From Callorhinchus milii (lineage: Eukaryota): a stretch of 64,000 bases of DNA. The notes below the pieces were generated by a model that made no database searches, had not been told where the DNA came from, and saw only the letters and a program-made list of their open reading frames with translations. Positions 15,927 through 61,166 of this stretch are shown one piece after another. Each line of letters starts with the position of its first letter. Position 1 is the first letter of the stretch. The stretch lies in contig NW_024704742.1 of the NCBI RefSeq assembly GCF_018977255.1, forward strand, positions 125,614,001 to 125,678,000, written 5' to 3'. The translations under genes and the position numbers were made by a program.

Positions 15927-16484
15927 ACGTTAGTTACAGAATGAAATGACCGAATGCTCCATGGAACACTATGATTTCTGTGCTGCTGTACTGGGGGAGG
16001 GGGGAGAGATTAATGGTGGCCATCATGACACTTATCAATTAAATTGATAGTGATCCAAATCTACCTCCAACTTTCAAATAAATTGCCAGCTCATCGCATT
16101 GTTCTTTATGCGTCATTACTGATGCAGAATAGCTGCCGCATCTAATAACAACATTCGCCTCATTTCTAATCAATTATACGTTGTAAAGTGCTTCAAGACA
16201 TTTCTTTTAACAGTGAAAGGTAAATTTAAACTATATAAAGAGAGGATGAGGCAGAGGGATTGAGGCAGTGAATTCCAGAGCTTCTTCATTCAAACCTCTC
16301 TTGCGAACATTCCAAGATACCCACCTTTAGTATTCAACAATAACAACAACTTGCACTTATATAGCACCCCTCATTCAGGGCAGCGTCCCAGAGCGCTTAG
16401 CTCTCAATTTATGAGCTGCGCTGAGCAAAAATATTTGAAAATATTTTTCTCATGTTGAGCAAGTTGTTTTTAAGCGTGACTTAC

Positions 16485-16555
16485 CAGACCCCTCTCGTTG
16501 TGCAGTTTTGTTCTGACCGACAGGCAACTAGTGGCATCATTATGGAACCTTAATT
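16485..16555 (-). CDS. PARP8: PARP8 internal coding exon (71 nt), ELRFHNDATSCLSVRTKLHNERGL
   Basis: Acceptor tcccatatttttcAG and donor CTG|GTaagt; phase 1-0. Aligns to recalled human ELRKTNDINCCLSIKSKLQKENGE. Confidence 0.92.
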
Positions 16556-17936
16556 CTGAAAAATATGGGAAAGATTTATAATATATAATATTCACAACGA
16601 CTTCCTTTGGAGTGTGCAGAGTTTCATGGAGTGGGCGATCTTCCTTTGCATTTATGGCTCCCAATTGTCCCCTTGGCAAATATTTAACTGTGATTAGAAC
16701 AGGATACAAACGATGCTAGCTAACAGCAGATTTCATTATAGTGTTTAGCCTATCAATTAAGGGGTAAAAAATCTTTGCATGAATTTACTACTTTTTTTAC
16801 TCAACCAAGGACGTATAGAGATTCCATTGTGTCTCACATCTTATTACCTATCCCCATTAAAGAGCAAGTACTATGAATCTACTTAGCCAAATTATTCACG
16901 TGACGGAAGTGCAAGGCATTGGGATTAAAATATCCGCCAAGAGCTAATGAACAGGCACAATGGCCTAAATGTTCCTGTTGTCCTATGTTCATACTGAAGT
17001 AGCGCTCAACACAAAGATGATACACTCTCCTGGAAAAATGCCAACACCATCGTATAAGACCTCACAGGAATACAGACCCTGACAAAGGCTATTCAGCCAT
17101 CAAGCCCGCTCCACCCTTTTATTGGTTCATATCAGCTTTTTATCCTTCTAAGCTATTCCTCACCTTTTTTCTATATACCTTAACTTCACAAGTACCTATG
17201 CATCCCCCAGTTAAGAAGCTGCATTGATCCTGCATCCATGACGCAAAACCCTTTGTGTGAAGAAAATACTACACACTTAACCTCTTAACTCTAATTTTAA
17301 GGTTATGTTGCAGACCGCACTCTTCACACTCAACAATACACACAACAATACACCCAATAAACCCAAGCCTTAGGACACAGAATCACGTTTATTGATTTCT
17401 ATGAAGTATTACAATTCCTTTCAGCACCAACAACCTCTTTGATATTTTCTTTATTTGTTCAACTCACTGCATGGATTCTTCTTTCACTCAGCCTGACCAA
17501 AGTAAATTGCTCTGTTTATATTATACATTTTAGTGTTGCTTTTTGAGATGTTGGAATACCAAGACGAGCTCAAAAGACCACATACATTGTGGTTAAAATT
17601 ATGAATATCTACTGTCAAGCTCAATGTTATCTGGCAGTCGTTCGTTCACTAAACTAGCCGGTGCAGTTGGCTGAATATTTCAACTTTCACATGAAAAAAA
17701 CTCACTACCTCTCTGAGTAATCACCTGTTGCATCGATATCTGTAATCTCTCTAGCACACAACTAAAAAACAGAAGTGATTTGCACCACACACAGACTAGC
17801 TGTTTTCCCTTGAACTTTAGGAATTTTAAATTTCAGTTCTAAATGATAAGTAGCAATGCGTATTGAAATGTAAAAAAAACAGAAGTCGCTGGGAACACTC
17901 AGCAGGTCAGGCAGCATCTATCGAGAAAGGAAAGTG

Positions 17937-17973
17937 AGTCAACGTTTCGGGTCCACGACCCTTCATCAGAACT
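17937..17973 (-). ncRNA. Minimal type I hammerhead ribozyme motif on the PARP8 sense strand
   Basis: Reverse complement reads AGTT CTGATGA A GGGTC gtg GACCC GAAA CGTT GACT. Confidence 0.7.
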
Positions 17974-17982
17974 GGCGAACTG

Positions 17983-18021
17983 GGGTTCTGACGAAGGGTC
18001 ATGGACCCGAAACGTTGACTC
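17983..18021 (+). ncRNA. Minimal type I hammerhead ribozyme motif
   Basis: GGGTT (stem I), CTGACGA, A, GGGTC atg GACCC (stem II), GAAA, palindromic ACGT stem III, GTT cleavage triplet, GACTC (stem I partner). Confidence 0.7.
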
Positions 18022-19157
18022 ACTTTCCTTTCTCCATAGATGTTGCCTGACCTGCTGAGTGTTCCCAGCGACTTCTGTTTTTGTTTTCAGATTTCCAGTC
18101 TCTGCAGTATTTTGAGTTTTGTCTATTGAAATGTAGTTGTCCTGTCCATGGGCTGGTTTTGTGCTTCAGAGGATGGAGAGAAGAAAAAATAGGTTGTTGG
18201 TACTGAAAGAAACTTTAATACTTTACCCACAATGGTGGCATTTGGTAAAGTGTCACATCAATACAGCCAATTGGCCTACTTCAGAGAATTGTAACTTTGT
18301 GGGGACACTTAAAATGAAAGTTAACATTTTTACCATTGACTTGTACAAGTCCTATCCTAGGCATACAAACTCAGAGTAGCCTCCAACAAAGATTAATTGT
18401 TATAACAATATCAGTTCCACAAGTATAGGCCTGCATTACTCTGCCATGTTCCATTAAGTTGTTCGATTGTTTGAATCTACTCCACTGTTAAATAGTGCTG
18501 TTTGTACCCATTACATAGGAAAACAGTTGCAGTATTTAGTTACAAAGGGTCATTTAACCTATCGAGCCCTCTCTGCCACAGACCATTCTGTGGTAGTAAG
18601 TCCAACCACCTCTTCAAATCCCACATCCATGTCTTCTCACCATACAGTATTTCTACTCCCCACATATTTATCCACCTTCTTCTTGAATCTTTCATTCCAT
18701 CCCTTTCTGGAGCATTTGATTCCAAAATCACATTACTCTGTGAGTAGAGACTCATTCCAGCCACGGTGCTAACCATTTAGACTTAAGGTTACGTCCTCTA
18801 GTAATTAATTGGTCCACAAGGGGGTTAAAAAAATACTCTCTGTTTACTTTGCAGATTGATTTCATAATCTTGAGTAACAGTTAAATCCACCTTAATTTCT
18901 TCAGCTCCTGGGAATACCCCCAAACACATCCAACCTTTCACTATAATTTACGATTTTCATTCATGTTATCATCCTTACAAGTTAGCATTAGTGACTCTTT
19001 TTGCCTCTTTCTCACTTTCTTTCTCTCTACAAGAAAGTATTCCATCTCCCCCCTTCCTTTCCAAACCAAAAGACATGGTTTGTCGATTGTTCCCTCAAGA
19101 ATATTTTGTTCCTAGTGGCACGATTTAGGCAAACAGCAACCAGAATTTGACTCTTAC

Positions 19158-19247
19158 CTGTTGTTATTCTTTGGAAAATGACTGGAATGGGATCTCTTGT
19201 GACTAGCACGTCATCATCATTCTCGGAATTGGACACATATGTATTGT
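19158..19247 (-). CDS. PARP8: PARP8 internal coding exon (90 nt), DNTYVSNSENDDDVLVTRDPIPVIFQRITT
   Basis: Acceptor ttctccctttcAG and donor AG|GTaagag; phase 1-1. Matches recalled human DNTYVSSSENDEDVLVTTEPIPVIFHRIAT. Confidence 0.96.
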
Positions 19248-19544
19248 CTGAAAGGGAGAAGATGACAATGTATTAGATTATTTCAATCTGGAATAATTTT
19301 GCATGTTTGTAAAGAATCCCATTTCAATGTGACATGATATTGTATACACATTTGCTCTTAGGAATGTTTTCCTGACAAAATAGTGCCTTAATTACCAGCC
19401 AGCAAAGAAACGGTATGTTTTCACTATGTACCAGTGAGAGGCTGCACAGTCTGATCTCAGCCCACATTGATTTGGGTTTCAAACAAAAAAAATTCCTAAG
19501 TTTCCACTGACAACCCAGTGCCTGGTCCAAATACCTGGTGTAAT

Positions 19545-20590
19545 AATGAGGTACACACAATGAGATGTTACCCAGGTCTGTGAATAGTTAATTGATCTCA
19601 GCAAGGCAGGCAGTAGAGGTGTTTCATTTGGTTTCCTGGACCCAAATAGAGCAAAAATCGGATGAAAAGTCATGTGAGAAATGTCAGACTCAACTGTGAT
19701 GCCCTCTACAGTCGAGAGACCTGCCAACATTCACTGTCCCATTTACAGTGCACATGAACAATAGCTGTCTCACACCTCAGACCGCCGAGACCCTCATACA
19801 CGCGTTCATAAAATCCAGGCTCGACTACGCAACCACGCTGCTTGTTGGCCTCCCCAACTCCTCCCTCCACAGGCTGCAGATCATCTAGAACTCTGAAGCC
19901 CGTGTCCTCTCCCGCACCTGGCTCCACGACCCTGTCACCCCCATCCTCACCCGACCCCACTGGCTTCCCATCACAGAGGATACAGTTCAAGATCATTGTC
20001 CTCACTTTGAAAGCCCTCCATGGCCTTGCACCCCCCTACCTCTGTGCCCTTCCTAATCCCTACCAACATACCCGCTCCCTCCACTCAGCGGCATCCGGCC
20101 TGCTTCATGTCCCCCGCCTCACCATTGGCGTGTGAGCCTTCAGCAACTCTGCCTCCACCCCCTGGAAATCCATCCCGTAGTCCCTCCACCTTGCCCCCTC
20201 CCTTGCCTCCTTCAAGACCCGTCTCAAGACCCTCATCGTTGACCATGCCTTTGGTCACCCTCCTTTCACCCCCTGCCCTCCACCCTCCCCGATCCCGACT
20301 CTCAGCTCGGGTCTGAAACACTTCATTGTCCAGTGCCTTGGGACGTCCTCCCAATGTGAAAGGTGCTATACAAATGTAATGTTGTTGTTGTTGTAGCTAG
20401 TTGGGCGGTACCATAGGGCAGCCAGCACCCATGGAACTGCACTACACCATGTGTTCAGACCATCTCTTTTCATAGAATGAAACCTAGAGTTTGTACTGGA
20501 TATGAAAGGTGTTCATGATGTGGCTGTTAATGAGTCAGTGTAGTTCTCACTCACTAACTAGTTCTGAGGTGAGGAAAGGGAGAATTAACC
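19545..20590 (+). mobile_element. LF-SINE-like relic (19545-19766 and 20394-20590) split by L2; similar relic at about 51270-51540
   Basis: Motifs ggtctgtg..agttaattgatctcagc, gccctctacagtcga..cctgcc..cactgtc..cacatgaa and ggcagccagcacccatggaactg resemble the recalled LF-SINE consensus. Confidence 0.45.
19767..20393 (+). mobile_element. L2 LINE 3' fragment inserted in an older SINE
   Basis: SRLDY..LLVGLPNSSLHRLQII homology and (TTG)n tail. TSD TAGCT at 19762-19766 and 20394-20398. Confidence 0.92.
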
Positions 20591-43958: not shown

Positions 43959-45631
43959 CGTTCCATTAACAGGAAGCTGTGTTCTCTGTGATGTGAGTTC
44001 TCTGATGAGCTGTAAGATTATCAGATCTATTAAAGCGCTTTCCACACGAGTGACATTGGAACGCTTTCATCTCAAAACACAGAAGCAATGCAGCTAGAAG
44101 GAGACTTTTTACGCTCATAATGTTTAAACCGGCTTTAATTCAATCATGTAACACAGCAACAAAGCCAAAAGCACTTTGCAATGTAGTGTGCGAGAGTTCA
44201 GTCATTTCAGAGTACAGGCCAAATGCAGTGGCTTGCGTTCACTGCCAACATGGGACTTGTCACATACTAAATTTAGACTCGTGTTCTGTATATGTATTGA
44301 GCAAGGTGGTGAGAATGAGCAACTCAATGCCAGCAGCTGTGGTAGAAGTCCAAGGCATCAATGCATTGTGAGAGAAAACTCAATGCATACAACAACAACA
44401 ACTTGGATTTATATAGCACCCTCCACGCCAGACGGTGTCTCAGAGCGTTTTACAGTAACGGATCCCGGGACCGAGCCAGAGGGAGGGGGAGGAAGGTGAC
44501 CAAAGTCGCGGTCGAAAAGAAAGGTCCTGAAAATGGGAAGGGAGGGAGCGAGACAAAGGAAGTGAGGAAGGCAGTTCCAGAGCCTCAGGGCATAGTGGCT
44601 GAAGGCACGGCCGCCGAGGGTGGAGCGGAGGACTCGGGGGACGAGGAGGAGGCCAGACCCGGAGGATCTAAAGGGATATGTTGAGTGAGGAGGGAGCTTG
44701 GGAGGGAGGGAATTAGGATGGATGAAGGCTCATATAGAGTAAAAAACATGGCACTGACTAGTTGGGTCGAATGGCTTGATTCAATGCTGTAGATTCTGTA
44801 AAATTTCATGGAATATCCCAGATTCAATTAAAAGTTTGTTTTGTCAAAAGGCACGGGAGCAATCGCAACATGTACAAGAGAGGTTTTTTTTGACTAGACT
44901 CGACAATGGTACATTATTTCAATGTCCGTGGATCTCTTTTATCCAGAATGAAGTCTCGAAATGTGAAAGTGATAGCATCGCAGTGGCAATTACTCTATAA
45001 CCTAAAGGAGAAGTGGTATAACATGAAATTAGTTCCGCATGAGATGAGAAGAGAAATACATCGATATTTTAATAAATAGAATCTGACCCTGATATCAGGA
45101 AATTACCAGTGATCCAACATTGTCAGAAAAATGACTGGAGTTAATAAAACCTGATGTGTTTATGCTGAAGAGAATAGTGATACGCCTGCAACTTAATTCC
45201 TCTGACACCTATACACTGACATCTATACACCAATTTCTCCATACAAATTTCTCTCTTGCCCCAATTGAGCAGGAACAATACAAATTGATTACTTCATCCT
45301 TACTCTTGCACCAAGGTCTCCTGTGCTGTTCTCTACCACTGCATCTGATGTAGCAAATATAACCTTAAAATATAACGTTATGACATCAGAAAGTTTCAAA
45401 ATGTTTCACAGGTGATTGCTGTCAAGTGAGGCAGCCGATTTGCATGCTAAAAGGGCCCACAAACAGCACCCAGGTGAATGACAGATTTATCTGGAGGACC
45501 ATTGGTCAACAACATCAGGAAAAACTCCTTTCCTTTCCTTTCTCACAGTGTTTCATTTGAGGTCCTAAACAGGACCTTGGTTTAAAGTCTCATCCAAAGG
45601 ACCTCTGACAATGCAGCTGTGTATCAACCTA

Positions 45632-52854: not shown

Positions 52855-54190
52855 CAACAATAAAATTACATTTATAGAGCCCCTTTCATGTCGGGAGGAC
52901 GTGCCAAAGCACTGAACAGTCAGGTGTCGGGGCCCGAGCATGGGGGAGTGGTGGTGTAGGGGTGAGGAAAAGCAGAGAGGAGGGAGGGCAACCAAAGGCA
53001 TGATTGAAGAGAAGGGTCTTGAGGCCGGCCTTGAAGGAGGCAAGGGAGGAAGCGAGACTAAGGGACCGTGGGATGGAATTCCAGAGTGCGAGGGCAGAGA
53101 GGCTGAAAGGGGTGAGGCAATCAGGAGGGCCTCGGTCTTGCTGACTTTGAGTTGGAGAAAGTTGTCCTTGTCCAGGCATTGATGTCGGACAGGCAGTCGG
53201 TCAGGACGCCAGTAGTCCTGGAGTTTAAGGTGGAGGCAGAGAGAGTTGGGTGTCATCCGCATACATGTGGAAATTTACCCCATGTCTGTTGATGATGTCA
53301 CCAAGGGGGAGCATGTAGAGAGTGAAGAGGAGGGGACCGAGGACAGAGCCCTGAGGGACACCGCACGAGACTGTGCGGGGGCTGGAGGGGAAGTTGTTTG
53401 CTGAGATGAAGTGGAGGCAGTGTGAAAGATAGGACCTGAAACAGTCAAGGACAGAACCTTGAAGGTTGAGGTGGGAGGAGAGGCGGTGGAAGAGGATTGA
53501 GTGGTCCATAGTGTCAAAGGCAGCGGAGAGGTCGAGGAGGATGAGGAGGCAGAGGGAGTCTTGGTTGCACATGGTCAGGATGTCGTTTGTGACCTTGACC
53601 AGAGCAGTTTCCGTGCTGTGGGCAGCAGGAAACCCGATTGGAGGGGTTCATGGAGGGAGTGAGAGGAGAGGAAAGAGCGAAGCCTCTCTCAAGGACCTTG
53701 GATAGGAAAGGGAGGTTTGCGATGGCCGGTAGCTGGACAACTGTGATGGGTCAAGGGAAGGTTTCTTCAAGGTGGGGTTGACAATGGTTGTTTTGAGTAG
53801 GGAAGGAACAGTGCAGGATGACAGGGAGAGGTTGATGATGTTGGCGAGTAATAGGCCAAGGAGGTGGAGCTGGGATTTAAGGAGAGAGGTGGGGATGGGT
53901 TCCAGGGAACAGGTGGTGAGCTTCATGGAGGGTATGGTGGTGAAGAAAGAGGAGGGGTTGACAGGTTCAAAGATGTGGAAGGAGGGATGGGTAATTGTCA
54001 GAGTGTGGGGTGGGGGTGGGGAAAAGGTGGAAGTTGTGGGGACAGTGGCAGCTGAGCGGATTCCCTCAATTTTGGACTCGAGGAATTCCAGCATTTTCTT
54101 GTAGTAAGAGTCAGAGGAAAAAATCTGCGAGGAGTGGCGGGGAGGGCGGAGAAGCCGATTGGTGGTGGAGAACAGGAGCCTGGGGTTGCC
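52855..54190 (-). mobile_element. L2 LINE fragment with internal deletions
   Basis: Motifs [32 protein letters not shown] and KKPSLDPSQLSSYRP. L2 tail at about 52855-52915. Confidence 0.92.
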
Positions 54191-55577: not shown

Positions 55578-57022
55578 AACAACAATAACAAGATCACATT
55601 TGTATAGCACCTTTCACGTCAGGCGGACGTCCCAAGGCGTTGGACAGAGTACAGCATTTCAGACCCGAGCTGGGGTTGAGGGGGTAAGGGAGGGGAGGGG
55701 AAGGGGGTGGCCGATAATAATAATAATAATCCTTGCATTTGATATAGCGCTTTTCACGTCGGGAGGACGTCCCAAAGTGCTTCACAGAACACACTGTAAA
55801 GTGAATTGACTGTATATTTGTGGGCGAACGCAGCAGCCAATTGCGCATAGCAATGTCCCACAAACAGTCGTAGATTGAAAATGACCAATTTTATTATTGT
55901 TTTTGGTTTGGAGGGATTATTATTAGGCTCTGTGTGGAGTAAGGAAACTTGCCCAAGGTTTCGCCCTGAACTGCCTGGAATTGAACTCAGGTCTCTCACT
56001 TGCAAAGTGAGTCCTCTGACCACTGAGCTACAGGACTCCACGATGGCATGGTCAAAGAGCAGGGTCTTGAGGTGGGACTTGAAGGAAGCTAAGGAGGGGG
56101 CGAGGCAGAGTGACTGGGGGATGGAATTCCAGAGGTTGGGGTCAGAGTGGCTGAAGGCTCTCCCGCCAATGGTGGGGTGGATGGGTTGGGGGATGTGGAG
56201 CAGGATGGGGAGGGAACGGGCGGGTTGGTAGGGTGTTAGGAGGTTTCAGAGGTAGGGTGGGGCGAGGCCATGGAGGGCTTCGTATGTGAGGACCAGGATC
56301 TTGAACTGGATCCTCTGAAGGATAGGGAGCCAGTGGAGCCGGGAGAGAGTGGGGGAGAGCCCTGGAGGACGCCAGATGTGACAGTGCGTGGGCTTGAGGA
56401 GAAACCATTAGAGGCAATGAAGTGGAGAAGGTGAGAGAGATAGGAATCGAACCAGGCAAGGGCAGATCCGTGAAGATTGAGTAAAGCGGAGAGGTGGTGT
56501 ATGAGGATGGAATGGTCGACAGTGTCAAAGGCGGCAGAGAGGTCGAGGAGAACTAGGAGGCAGAGGGAGCCCTGATCACAGATGTTCAAAATGCCATTAG
56601 TGACTTTGACCAGGGCTGTTTCTGTGCTGTGGGCTGAATCACCGATGATTCTTTCCAGGACCTTGTAGAGGAATGGGAGATCAGAGATGGGGCTGTAGCT
56701 GGAGAGGAGGGATGGATCCAGGGAAGGTTTTTTCAGGATGGGAGTGATGATGGCCATTTTTAAGGGGTGGGAACTGAACCAGTGGACAAGGAGAGGTTGA
56801 TGACATAGGACAGGAGGGGAGGCAGAAGGTGGAGCTGGGAGACAAGGAGAGAGGCGGATGTGGGATCAAGGCAGCAGGTATTGGGTTTGAGTTTGCGGAC
56901 AGTTGTGAGGGAGGAGGGAGAGATAGGGTCGAAGTAGCATAGAGGGGGATAGGTGGGGGGTGGCTTATGAGGGAGAGGTGATGTGGAGGTGGCTGTGGAT
57001 GGGGCTGAGGTGGCTGAACGTA
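55578..57022 (-). mobile_element. L2 LINE fragment with internal deletion, interrupted by a SINE (55714-56040)
   Basis: Motifs PILKKPSLDP, HSTETALVKVTN and [13 protein letters not shown]2 3' tail with (CAA)n. Confidence 0.92.
55714..56040 (-). mobile_element. tRNA-derived SINE, short subfamily, inserted in L2
   Basis: Homology to 20888-21191. TSD CGAT at 55712-55715 and 56041-56044. Confidence 0.9.
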
Positions 57023-58467: not shown

Positions 58468-59644
58468 TATGGGGGGAAAATGTGGTATGTGCTAATTATC
58501 ATAAGAACAGAAGTTACAGTTAAAAATTGTTCTAAATGCTGAAGACTCTTCCATCCTCCCTCACACCCACCCCCTACCCCCCGAGCAGTCGAAATGAACA
58601 GATTATGCGGAGCAGAGTCATCCCACTCAGCTCCTATTTACCCCACAGTTGAACGCCCCAACAGGTAGGATGGTCCTAGTTGGACAAGCAGATGGAAAGC
58701 TTGCCGGACAGCAATATCAATGGCAAGCTATGCAGTTTTAACGAGTTAGACTCCAGCGGTACCCCAATGCACACTCTGGGGACCCCCAAGACTTGTCTCT
58801 TGCCAACCTGTGCTAATACTTTCAGGAATTAGGTAAGAAGGATGGTCCCTCCAGGGAGAGAGTGCACATTCCACTCCAACAATCTATCTCTGGAATTTCC
58901 ATGTGTAGGTGGGATGCATGGAACTCTCAGTTTGGTTTGGATACTCTTAAGCATAGTGATAGGTTTCCGCATGTGTCAGACAGCTGGCTGACCAAAAAAA
59001 AATTTAATGACAGCCCGGTCCTGGTCTCATATTGTCTGCTGACTTCAGGAGAATAGGTTCACGCAGACGCACTGTAGATGGACGAGGTCCATTACCTGCC
59101 ATTATTCTCAGCGGTGGGAACAAGGTACAATGAATTGCTGCTTTCACAGCCCAACAAAACACATCGCGTACATTGAATCTTCTGCAGCTCTGGGCAAAAC
59201 CTAATCTCCTGAGGTCACGAGATAGCCAATCAGTCCCAAACTTGTCATTAAGAACACAACAATCACAACAACAACAACACATTACATTTGCTTAGCGCCT
59301 TTCATGTCAGGAGGACGTCCCAAGGCGCTGGACAGTCAGAGATTCATACCCAAACTCGTGGATGGGATCAGGAGGGGTGGATGGCGGGGAAGGAGGTTGA
59401 CCAAAGGGACGGTCGAAGAGGAGGGTCTTGAGACGGGTCTTGTAGGAGGCAAGGAAGGATCAATCTTTTTAGATATATATTTTAAAATCACTCTAGTCTA
59501 GGTTCAACTCAATCTCCTCACTTTCCCACCCCAAGTGCCTTTTGCTAAATCCTAATCCAGTAACTAGAGTGGGAAACGTTACGATAAGTTCTGATTTGGG
59601 CAATCATATTATAGAATCATAGAATTATACAGCATAGAAGGAGG

Positions 59645-59745
59645 TTCTGACGAAGGGTTGTGGACCCGAAATGTTGACTTACTTTCCTTTCTCCATAGAT
59701 GCTGCCTGACCTGCTGAGTGTTCTCAGCGACTTCTGTTTTTCTTT
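59645..59745 (+). mobile_element. Single-arm copy of the same hammerhead-bearing Penelope-like element, inserted in a CR1 3' end
   Basis: ttCTGACGAagggttgtggacccGAAAtgttgact...gacttctgttttt is nearly identical to 17986-18082. TSD AGAAGGAGG at 59636-59644 and 59748-59756. Confidence 0.8.
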
Positions 59746-59897
59746 ACAGAAGGAGGCCTTTTGCTCATCGTGTCTGTGCCGGCTCTTTGAAAAGAGCTAT
59801 CCAAATTAATCCTACTTCATAGCCCTGCAAACTTGTCCTCCCCAAATATTTATCCACTTCTTGTTTAAAGATTGTTATCTAATTGGTTTCCACCACC

Positions 59898-61166
59898 TGA
59901 CCTATCGGCAGCATTCGATACGGTCGACCATGCTATCCTCCTCCACCGCTTGTCCTCCCACCTCAACCTTCAAGGCCCTGTCCTTGAGTGGTTTAGGTCG
60001 TACCTCTCCCACCATCTTCACTTTGTTTCCACGAATGGTTTTTCCTCCGGCCCCCGCACTATCTCATGCGGTGTCCCTCAGGGCTCTGTCCTCGGTCCCC
60101 TCCTCTTCACCCTCTATATGCTCCCCCTTGGTGACATCATCCACAGACATGGGGTTAACTTCCACATGTATGTGGATGACACCCAACTCTACCTTTCCTC
60201 CTCTACCCTCAACTCCACGACCACCGATGTCCTGACAGCTGTCTGTCCGACATCGAGTCCTGGACGAGAGATAACTTTCTTCAGCTCAACGTGCGTAAAA
60301 CTGAGGCCCTCCTGATTGGCTCGCGTCAGCGCCTCCGCACCTCAGGCGCTGACAGCATCAGCATCCAAGGCTGCACTCTCCACCTCTCAAAGCCAGTCAG
60401 GAACCTCGGTGTTCTGTTCGACCCTGAGCTGTCCTTTCTCCCTCATATCCGCGCCACAACTGGCACCGCCTTCCATCACCTCCGGAATATCGCCAGACTA
60501 CGGCACTACCTCACCCCTCACGCTGCTGAAACTCTGGTCCACGCCTTTATCACCTCAAGGCTGGACTATGGGAACTCTCTCCTCGCCGGCCTTCCCGGCA
60601 CCTCCCTCCACAAGCTGCAGGTCATTCAGAACTCTGCAGCTCGTGTACTGTCCCGCACCAGGTTTCGGGAACACGTCACTCCCACCCTCGCTCGCCTCCA
60701 CTGGCTCCCCATCCCCCAGAGGATCGATTTCAAGATCCTCATCCTCACCTACAAGGCCATTCACGGCCTTGTTCCCTCCTACCTCTCCGACCTACTATCT
60801 CCCTACCTACCTGCCCGTACCCTCCGTTCCTCTGGCTCCGGTCTGCTCCACATCCCCCGCCCCAACCACCATACCATCGGTGGCCGGGCCTTCAGCCTCT
60901 CAGCCCCCAGGCTCTGGAACTCCATCCCCCAGTGCCTTCGCCTTGCCTCCTCCCTTTCCTCCTTCAAGGCCGGTCTCAAGACCTTTCTCTTTGACCGAGC
61001 CTTCAGCTTCGCTCTCGACTCTCTACCCCCTCCTCGCTCCCTCCCTTCCCTCACCCTGACCAGTTCCCCCCTGCTCGGGTCCTGACCCAACTGTACAGCG
61101 CCTTGGGACATCCTCCCGACGTAAAAGACGCTCTATAAATGGAATCTTGTTGTTGTTGCTGTTGTT
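59898..61166 (+). mobile_element. 5'-truncated L2 LINE: RT C-terminal half plus 3' tail
   Basis: Peptide motifs [32 protein letters not shown] and SRLDYGNSLL...LHWLP, with one frameshift near 60240. Tail cagcgccttgggacatcctcccgacg...(TTG)n. Confidence 0.95.

Follow-up and report, generated by a model that had tools for sequence, protein, structure and literature searches.

A head-to-head pair of minimal hammerhead arms in an elephant shark PARP8 intron as a probable Penelope-like insertion stub

An intron of PARP8 in Callorhinchus milii contains a 251-bp palindromic insert that is probably a dead, one-off insertion product: two head-to-head copies of the last 100–140 bases of a very abundant repeat, which would itself be the 3′ end of a Penelope-like element (PLE). 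An endonuclease-bearing PLE is the likely source, with the insert as a leftover of its 3′ pseudo-LTR end. We infer this membership from architecture and motif rather than from sequence homology. Coordinates throughout refer to the window, which is the whole 64-kb stretch of DNA that was analyzed.

Anatomy of the insert and its hammerhead motifs

The insert occupies positions 17873–18123 and is enclosed by an exact 12-bp direct repeat. The two copies of this target site duplication (TSD; 17861–17872 on the left and 18124–18135 on the right) are identical and AT-rich, and ATT is present on both of their strands. An exact 12-mer would arise by chance with a probability of 1.7 × 10⁻⁷ at a fixed place, or 0.002 with a boundary slack of 100 × 100. 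Within the insert, two inverted segments of 101 nt each (17872–17972 and 17985–18085, 12 nt apart) were complementary at 96/101 positions. The left arm (17873–17975, minus strand) is an inverted, 5′-truncated, tail-less copy of the repeat 3′ end and runs in the sense direction of PARP8. The right arm (17985–18085, plus strand) is also a 5′-truncated copy of that end, is antisense to PARP8, and is extended by a 38-nt tail (18086–18123, plus strand) found on the right side only. The arms are thus oriented tail-outward with their 5′ ends meeting at a 9-nt spacer (17976–17984), composed of one base plus the left-arm end copied again, which would represent repair filler. The predicted fold of the insert had an energy of −190 kcal/mol (z = −23), and equal stability was reached in 0 of 200 shuffles. 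The original prediction, which was made from the letters of the DNA, had described a 251-bp insert with a clean 12-bp TSD, built of two inverted arms of ~100 bp and a short 3′ extension, and this description was borne out.

Each arm contained a minimal type I hammerhead motif. The left-arm motif lies at 17937–17973 on the minus strand (core 17969–17941, predicted cut between 17941 and 17940), and the right-arm motif lies at 17983–18021 on the plus strand (core 17988–18016, predicted cut after 18016). In both, CUGANGA is followed by an additional A, a stem II of 5 bp, GAAA, the palindrome ACGU (no loop III) and GUU. A second family member, a solo arm without a tail, was found at 59645–59747 on the plus strand, flanked by its own 9-bp TSD (59636–59644 and 59748–59756). 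With G-U pairs included, helix I measured 5 bp in the right arm, 4 bp in the left arm and 5 bp in the solo copy. All three arms of the window (the two insert arms and the solo arm) had CUGANGA, the extra nucleotide, G10.1…C11.1 and GAAA; the solo copy has AUGU in place of ACGU, and its palindrome is lost. A minimal hammerhead (min-HHR) descriptor, written for this analysis, returned three sites in 64 kb, namely both insert arms and the solo copy, compared to a mean of 0.01 and a maximum of 1 in 200 dinucleotide shuffles used as a control. The core claimed for each arm (CTGANGA-A-stem II-GAAA-CGTT) was recovered. The arm motifs also agree with the min-HHR consensus in Figure S3 of PMC4209133, a match that supports their earlier designation as Penelope-type minimal type I hammerheads.

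The hammerhead check against Rfam that accompanied the original prediction was run with E up to 10 on 16000–20000 and 17978–18040, and it returned no hammerhead family. This null result bears only against a canonical Rfam hammerhead. The sub-threshold matches (nine in the first interval and one in the second) were mostly miRNA hairpins, with the others belonging to unrelated families. A microRNA precursor was considered and rejected, with the best Rfam match scoring 43.6 bits vs. a cut-off of 70 and none of the nine matches reaching its own cut-off. Free folding of the two isolated cores returned no hammerhead dimer, an outcome expected of a folding model that is blind to tertiary contacts and one given no evidential weight.

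Min-HHRs sit in the pseudo-LTRs of metazoan PLEs and are scattered through a genome in thousands of copies (Cervera and De la Pena 2014, PMC4209133). The motifs described here resemble them in CUGANGA with an extra nucleotide, G10.1-C11.1, GAAA, the NUH site, a short helix I, the palindromic 15.2–16.2 positions, the missing loop III, the dispersed copies and the pairing of motifs on opposite strands. Dual min-HHRs located 100–700 bp apart on opposite strands were interpreted in that study as probable truncated PLEs, whereas the cores of the insert start only ~20 nt apart. The alignment part of PMC4209133 has no row for a cartilaginous fish, and its searchable supplement contains no mention of Callorhinchus, shark or milii.

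Copies, junctions and age of the repeat family

Contigs from 4 of 24 runs (X1, X4, X5 and X11, the last from organism B) were placed on 16400–19400 at 80% likeness. The numbers placed were 11,913 for X1, 14,374 for X4, 4,361 for X5 and 26,630 for X11. Summed contig depth, which is not equal to copy number, was 1.2–1.5 × 10⁵ over the arms in X1, 7–10 over the flanks and 339–442 over the spacer, and it is read only as indicating very many copies of the arm repeat, on the order of ten thousand. Relative to position 18023, depth at position 17977 in the spacer was 0.17% in X1, 0.11% in X4, 0.23% in X5 and 0.21% in X11. The spacer and junction of the palindrome are nearly private to the insert copy. 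The placed contigs showed 412 different joints, and loose contig ends clustered at 18085–18087 (the tail-less end) and 18121–18122 (the tailed end). The X11 joints 17933/18024 were set aside as alignment breaks, since the two positions mirror each other next to an insertion of one base that is common in organism B.

Other copies of the repeat extend upstream past 17975 (74 contigs at an agreement of 0.69 in X1 and 243 at 0.58 in X11), and this continuation marks the arm as the 3′-terminal part of a longer repeat. Upstream, the family sequence is shared among copies and pyrimidine-rich, with CAG directly before stem I. Taken together with the private spacer, the varied junctions and the solo arm with its own TSD, the upstream continuation indicates that the palindrome as a whole is probably not the mobile unit. 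The original prediction of a family of palindromic mini-elements finds no support in these same four observations, with the spacer at 0.1–0.2% of arm depth in all four runs. The common start of the arms falls just after a possible splice acceptor.

All three arms in the window begin within ~4 nt upstream of TTCTGA, the start of the hammerhead, and such a common 5′ start fits a defined short RNA rather than random truncation. An alternative explanation would be a dedicated short, non-autonomous PLE derivative, mobilized in trans as an RNA of ~100–140 nt reaching from hammerhead to tail, with its 5′ end fixed, perhaps by a splice acceptor just before stem I or a stop of reverse transcriptase (RT), and inserting alone or in fold-back form. 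In addition to the shared start, the pyrimidine-rich upstream sequence with its CAG right before stem I would suit such a unit; the Penelope intron of D. virilis stops right at the 5′ side of helix I (PMC4209133), and non-autonomous PLE derivatives exist (PMC8557442; bioRxiv 10.64898/2026.07.22.740005). We nevertheless consider this explanation unlikely, given that the upstream family sequence is present in other copies, that the joints are many and varied, that three arms are too few to define a hot spot and that a spliced template would run on into an upstream exon instead of stopping.

The age of the insert and that of its family were distinguished by several observations. Over 97 shared bases, four positions separate the insert arms, two of these at CpG, and six separate the solo copy from each of them. 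Among the three arms, four of eight variable positions were transitions at CpG. The X1 contigs, classed by likeness to the insert copy and including any other repeat in the 3-kb stretch, numbered 1,216 at ≥99%, 3,337 at 95–99%, 5,226 at 90–95% and 2,134 at <90% (total 11,913), which places 7,360 of them below 95%. Not all of the repeat family is young, and organism B has it in abundance as well. An orthologous contig of organism B, with pieces 86–88% identical, is 190 nt shorter across the insert site, where a clean empty site would be expected to be 263 nt shorter; among the pieces listed for this contig, none falls on the element. The insert site is probably empty in organism B, and the insert copy is more recent than the family at large. 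Both insert junctions were present without differences in X1, and among the pieces listed for X4 only the right junction was. The description of the element as young consequently holds for the insert copy, with its perfect TSD and a site probably empty in organism B, but not for the family, most of which is <95% alike to it.

A broader form of the same prediction held that the mobile unit of a young family is the whole palindrome, which silences its own ribozyme by folding back and so spares the host. The clean TSD around the entire unit, the two intact cores and the predicted burial of the core are what this model would lead one to expect. The private spacer largely refutes it (0.11–0.23% of arm depth in 4/4 runs), the solo arm has a duplication of its own, the family contigs are mostly <95% alike to the insert, and monomeric min-HHRs show no detectable cleavage in any case (PMC4209133). 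We regard this explanation as very unlikely.

Penelope-like traits and a proposed route of insertion

Insertions of endonuclease-positive PLEs show strong 5′ truncation, an adjacent inverted and 5′-truncated copy, and a 30–40-bp tail that is often found at one end only (Craig et al. 2021, PMC8557442). The same form of PLE insertion is given in a curation guide (PMC8969392). In the insert, the truncated copy lies beside an inverted one with the 5′ ends of the arms meeting, the tail of 38 nt stands at one end while the left arm and the solo copy are tail-less, and the TSD varies in length, with 12 bp at the insert and 9 bp at the solo copy. The earlier comparison to an inverted pseudo-LTR pair is supported by this meeting of 5′ ends and by the upstream continuation of other copies. 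Truncation, an inverted copy, a tail at one end and a TSD are likewise shared with Penelope/Poseidon, Neptune and Nematis (PMC8557442; Schostak et al. 2008, PMC2377424). Unlike in those PLEs, both copies in the insert are cut to ~100 nt; consequently, no coding sequence is left and no clade can be assigned.

Another parallel is PAc, the Poseidon element of Anolis carolinensis, whose purified protein cuts and extends both strands and prefers ATT (Frangieh et al. 2024, PMC11167929). Reverse transcription by this protein begins at two internal sites that bound the tail, and the hammerhead of PAc cuts only with the protein and is not needed for insertion in vitro (PMC11167929). In PAc, the hammerhead lies about 100–150 nt upstream of two 3′ ends, and in the insert the corresponding distances are about 90 and 128 nt. 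The target of the insert is likewise AT-rich with ATT, and extension of both strands would yield the fold-back seen. The reading frame of PAc starts in stem II, whereas the sole ATG in the core region of the insert, in the left arm, gives a frame of 19 codons before a stop. This likeness to PAc is at the level of description, not of sequence comparison.

Non-LTR retrozymes are also short, non-coding and PLE-derived with a type I hammerhead, and their monomers are dispersed, many of them in introns (Li, Clavereau and Pollet, bioRxiv 10.64898/2026.07.22.740005). They are defined by head-to-tail tandem units. The insert is a head-to-head pair and the other copy is solo, arrangements that give no cis dimer and no circle, and we rejected this identity.

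Proteins and distant matches were also searched. A scan of 12 window frames gave no GIY-YIG match, and no RT/GIY-YIG frame was linked to the family. A protein search with the translated arms returned only three elephant shark host gene models, mis-predicted with exonised repeat. The RT fragments found elsewhere in the window, whose motifs suggest a LINE type, fall outside the duplications. Pattern scans for the motif and arm gave zero hits in one metagenome-contig scan and zero in two scans of viral contigs, and a phage collection contained no match. Seven other pattern loci (one in a genome contig and six in metagenome contigs) were dismissed as chance: the DNA is of bacterial type, the similarity ends with the pattern, and a hammerhead core is missing. 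PLEs themselves were found in every species of a survey that included the elephant shark (PMC4350176).

For the insert as a PLE stub, we infer with good confidence a route in which both strands are nicked 12 bases apart, each nick primes a cDNA, synthesis stops past the hammerhead and repair joins the products. The RT/GIY-YIG protein of the element would nick both strands of the AT-rich target at this spacing. Reverse transcription primed by each nick would begin at either of two internal sites ~38 nt apart, and this choice of sites would give one arm with a tail and the other without. Both cDNAs would abort just after the hammerhead, and repair would join them, with the 9-nt filler and the duplication of 12 bp left behind. 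The hammerhead would be a passenger inherited from the element. Two-strand priming of this kind predicts 3′ ends facing outward, 5′ ends meeting, a one-sided tail and an exact TSD, as observed. Several points count against a PLE stub: the negative GIY-YIG scan and protein search described above, the common 5′ start of all three arms, the absence of ATT from the 9-bp duplication of the solo copy, and the gap of 190 nt rather than 263 nt in organism B.

The insert in PARP8 pre-mRNA and its meaning

A frame at 19111–19272 on the minus strand matched PARP8, with 52 of 55 candidate proteins matching and most of the named ones being PARP8. Callorhinchus milii PARP8 is matched at 100% identity by five exons in the window, all of them on the minus strand, and white shark PARP8 at 88–100%. 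The exons flanking the insert lie at 19248–19159 and 16556–16485 (minus strand), and the host intron (16556–19157, minus strand) is 2602 nt long with GT..AG ends. A contig of run X5, which was taken as RNA on the basis of this spliced contig alone, joins both flanking exons and skips 16556–19157 with CT..AC ends; its depth was 97 vs. 2–14 in most intron bins. PARP8 is spliced across the insert, and the intron is removed. The placement of the insert in a PARP8 intron, as originally proposed, was confirmed by the five identical exons and the spliced contig.

PARP8 lies on the minus strand, and its pre-mRNA therefore contains the left-arm motif, with GUU at 17943–17941. The original prediction was right that a motif is present in the pre-mRNA, but the GUU it proposed for cleavage (18014–18016) belongs to the right arm and is absent from this transcript. 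During transcription, the antisense arm would emerge first, and the left-arm motif, without stem III or a dimer partner, would stay locked in a hairpin of ~100 bp. In the predicted fold, 30/30 positions of the left core paired with the other arm at a mean probability of 1.0, and freeing 12 core residues of this hammerhead was computed to cost ~30 kcal/mol. These predictions support the suggestion that the fold-back sequesters the ribozyme. Single min-HHRs show undetectable cleavage and dimers show low cleavage (PMC4209133). The two motifs of the insert are on opposite strands, which makes a cis dimer impossible, and the left-arm hammerhead most likely does not cut in the modeled PARP8 pre-mRNA. 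Protection of the host transcript by the fold-back, a further suggestion of the original prediction, would be unnecessary, since no cis dimer can form and single min-HHRs are either without detectable cleavage (PMC4209133) or dependent on protein (PMC11167929).

In one X5 contig, the left flank is joined directly to the tail, and 17880–18087 is left out at a 4-nt direct repeat. A splice reading of this skip was rejected, with GT..AG ends in none of five equivalent placements on either strand. Slippage of reverse transcriptase at the base of a hairpin leaves a direct-repeat skip signature of this kind (PMC8240250). The skip is a hint of hairpin formation, although a deletion allele or a PCR or library artefact fits equally, and it is uninformative on cleavage. 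Counts of A>G and T>C places, considered as signs of A-to-I editing in contigs that merge thousands of copies and have no matched DNA, were 5/5 in X5, 3/2 in X1 and 5/4 in X4 and say nothing on editing.

Long dsRNA duplexes such as this ~100-bp hairpin are ADAR substrates, and PARP8 could in principle have co-opted it as intronic dsRNA for ADAR editing, dicing or the tuning of splicing. The near-perfect hairpin predicted in the pre-mRNA and the RT-like behavior of the X5 contig that skips it (PMC8240250) are compatible with co-option, which we consider highly improbable. The site is probably empty in organism B, a close relative, and there is consequently no sign that the hairpin is conserved; the arms show ordinary decay, with half of their differences at CpG; a deletion allele or a library artefact would explain the X5 skip just as well; and editing as a by-product would not amount to co-option. 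A MITE or fold-back DNA transposon, in which the arms would be terminal inverted repeats and the hammerhead incidental, could account for the long inverted arms, the short non-coding unit and the target duplication but is scarcely credible given the 38-nt extension outside the inverted arms at one end, the private spacer, the unequal TSD lengths (12 vs. 9 bp), the insertion of a single arm with its own duplication and the agreement of the motif with the PLE min-HHR consensus (PMC4209133).

PLEs are already described as having minimal hammerheads, inverted truncated copies and one-sided tails, and the insert is one copy of a very abundant repeat. In the literature searched, no report on elephant shark hammerheads was found; Repbase or Dfam may contain the family, which may be undescribed in print. 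Antisense pieces of the arm repeat are already part of three elephant shark gene models.

It is doubtful, on the present evidence, that chimaera genomes harbor a dedicated non-autonomous Penelope derivative of ~100–140 nt, with its 5′ end fixed at stem I and about ten thousand copies, often primed on both strands and seeding near-perfect intronic hairpins. If such a derivative were real, it would offer ADAR or Dicer a substrate comparable to inverted Alu pairs, but of Penelope origin, and its genomic record would give a statistical readout of the second-strand step of Penelope insertion. As a PLE stub, the insert is a small and clean specimen: a tail on the right arm only, filler between the arms and an exact TSD are the traces that two-strand priming from two internal start sites would be expected to leave.

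Family members and the 5′ ends of their arms

The window contained a second member of the family, a solo arm that, together with its flanking duplications, occupied positions 59636–59756. This arm is a tail-less copy of the arm of the fold-back element in the PARP8 intron, is flanked by a 9-bp duplication, and is hosted by a different repeat. The ACGU palindrome has been lost from its hammerhead. All three arms began at most ~4 nt upstream of the hammerhead (17973–17986 in the element and 59643–59647 in the solo arm), and this shared start represents a possible truncation hot spot. Upstream, the family sequence contains a putative splice acceptor that adjoins the common start.

Sequence surrounding the element and the hairpin skip

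Two inverted segments of 47 nt (17404–17450 and 18177–18223), 81% complementary and 726 nt apart, lie on either side of the element and are perhaps the remnant of an older fold-back. The tail-less end of the element also showed 75% likeness to a 28-nt segment 110 nt upstream (17764–17791), which is either an older fragment or a chance similarity.

One contig of X5, a sequencing run taken as RNA since it holds a spliced PARP8 contig, lacked positions 17880–18087, which are exactly the hairpin, with a 4-nt direct repeat at the breakpoint. Splice-site ends were not found at the skip in this one contig from the RNA-like run. RT slippage, a deletion allele and a PCR skip have been offered as its source.

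Other coding and repeat content

A single C2H2 zinc-finger frame (43969–44139, minus strand; Pfam PF00096, E 3.5e-8) was identified on the same strand as PARP8, upstream of the PARP8 exons found. Reverse-transcriptase fragments (PF00078), which we take from their motifs to be LINE-like, were located at 53225–53644 and 56239–56865 on the minus strand and at 59869–60312 on the plus strand. Dispersed repeats were numerous around these fragments, and self-comparison put the repetitive share of the window at ~35%.

Matches outside the window

A pattern match in a bacterial contig (L001:1567–3075) was rejected as a chance occurrence with no relation to the element; judged by eye, the products encoded on this contig resemble a binding protein of the ABC type and a subunit of a di-iron monooxygenase. 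Translated antisense pieces of the element's repeat were present inside three elephant shark UniRef gene models (P0053–P0055), namely COG3, a phospholipase and CEP170Bb, where they are probably annotation errors.
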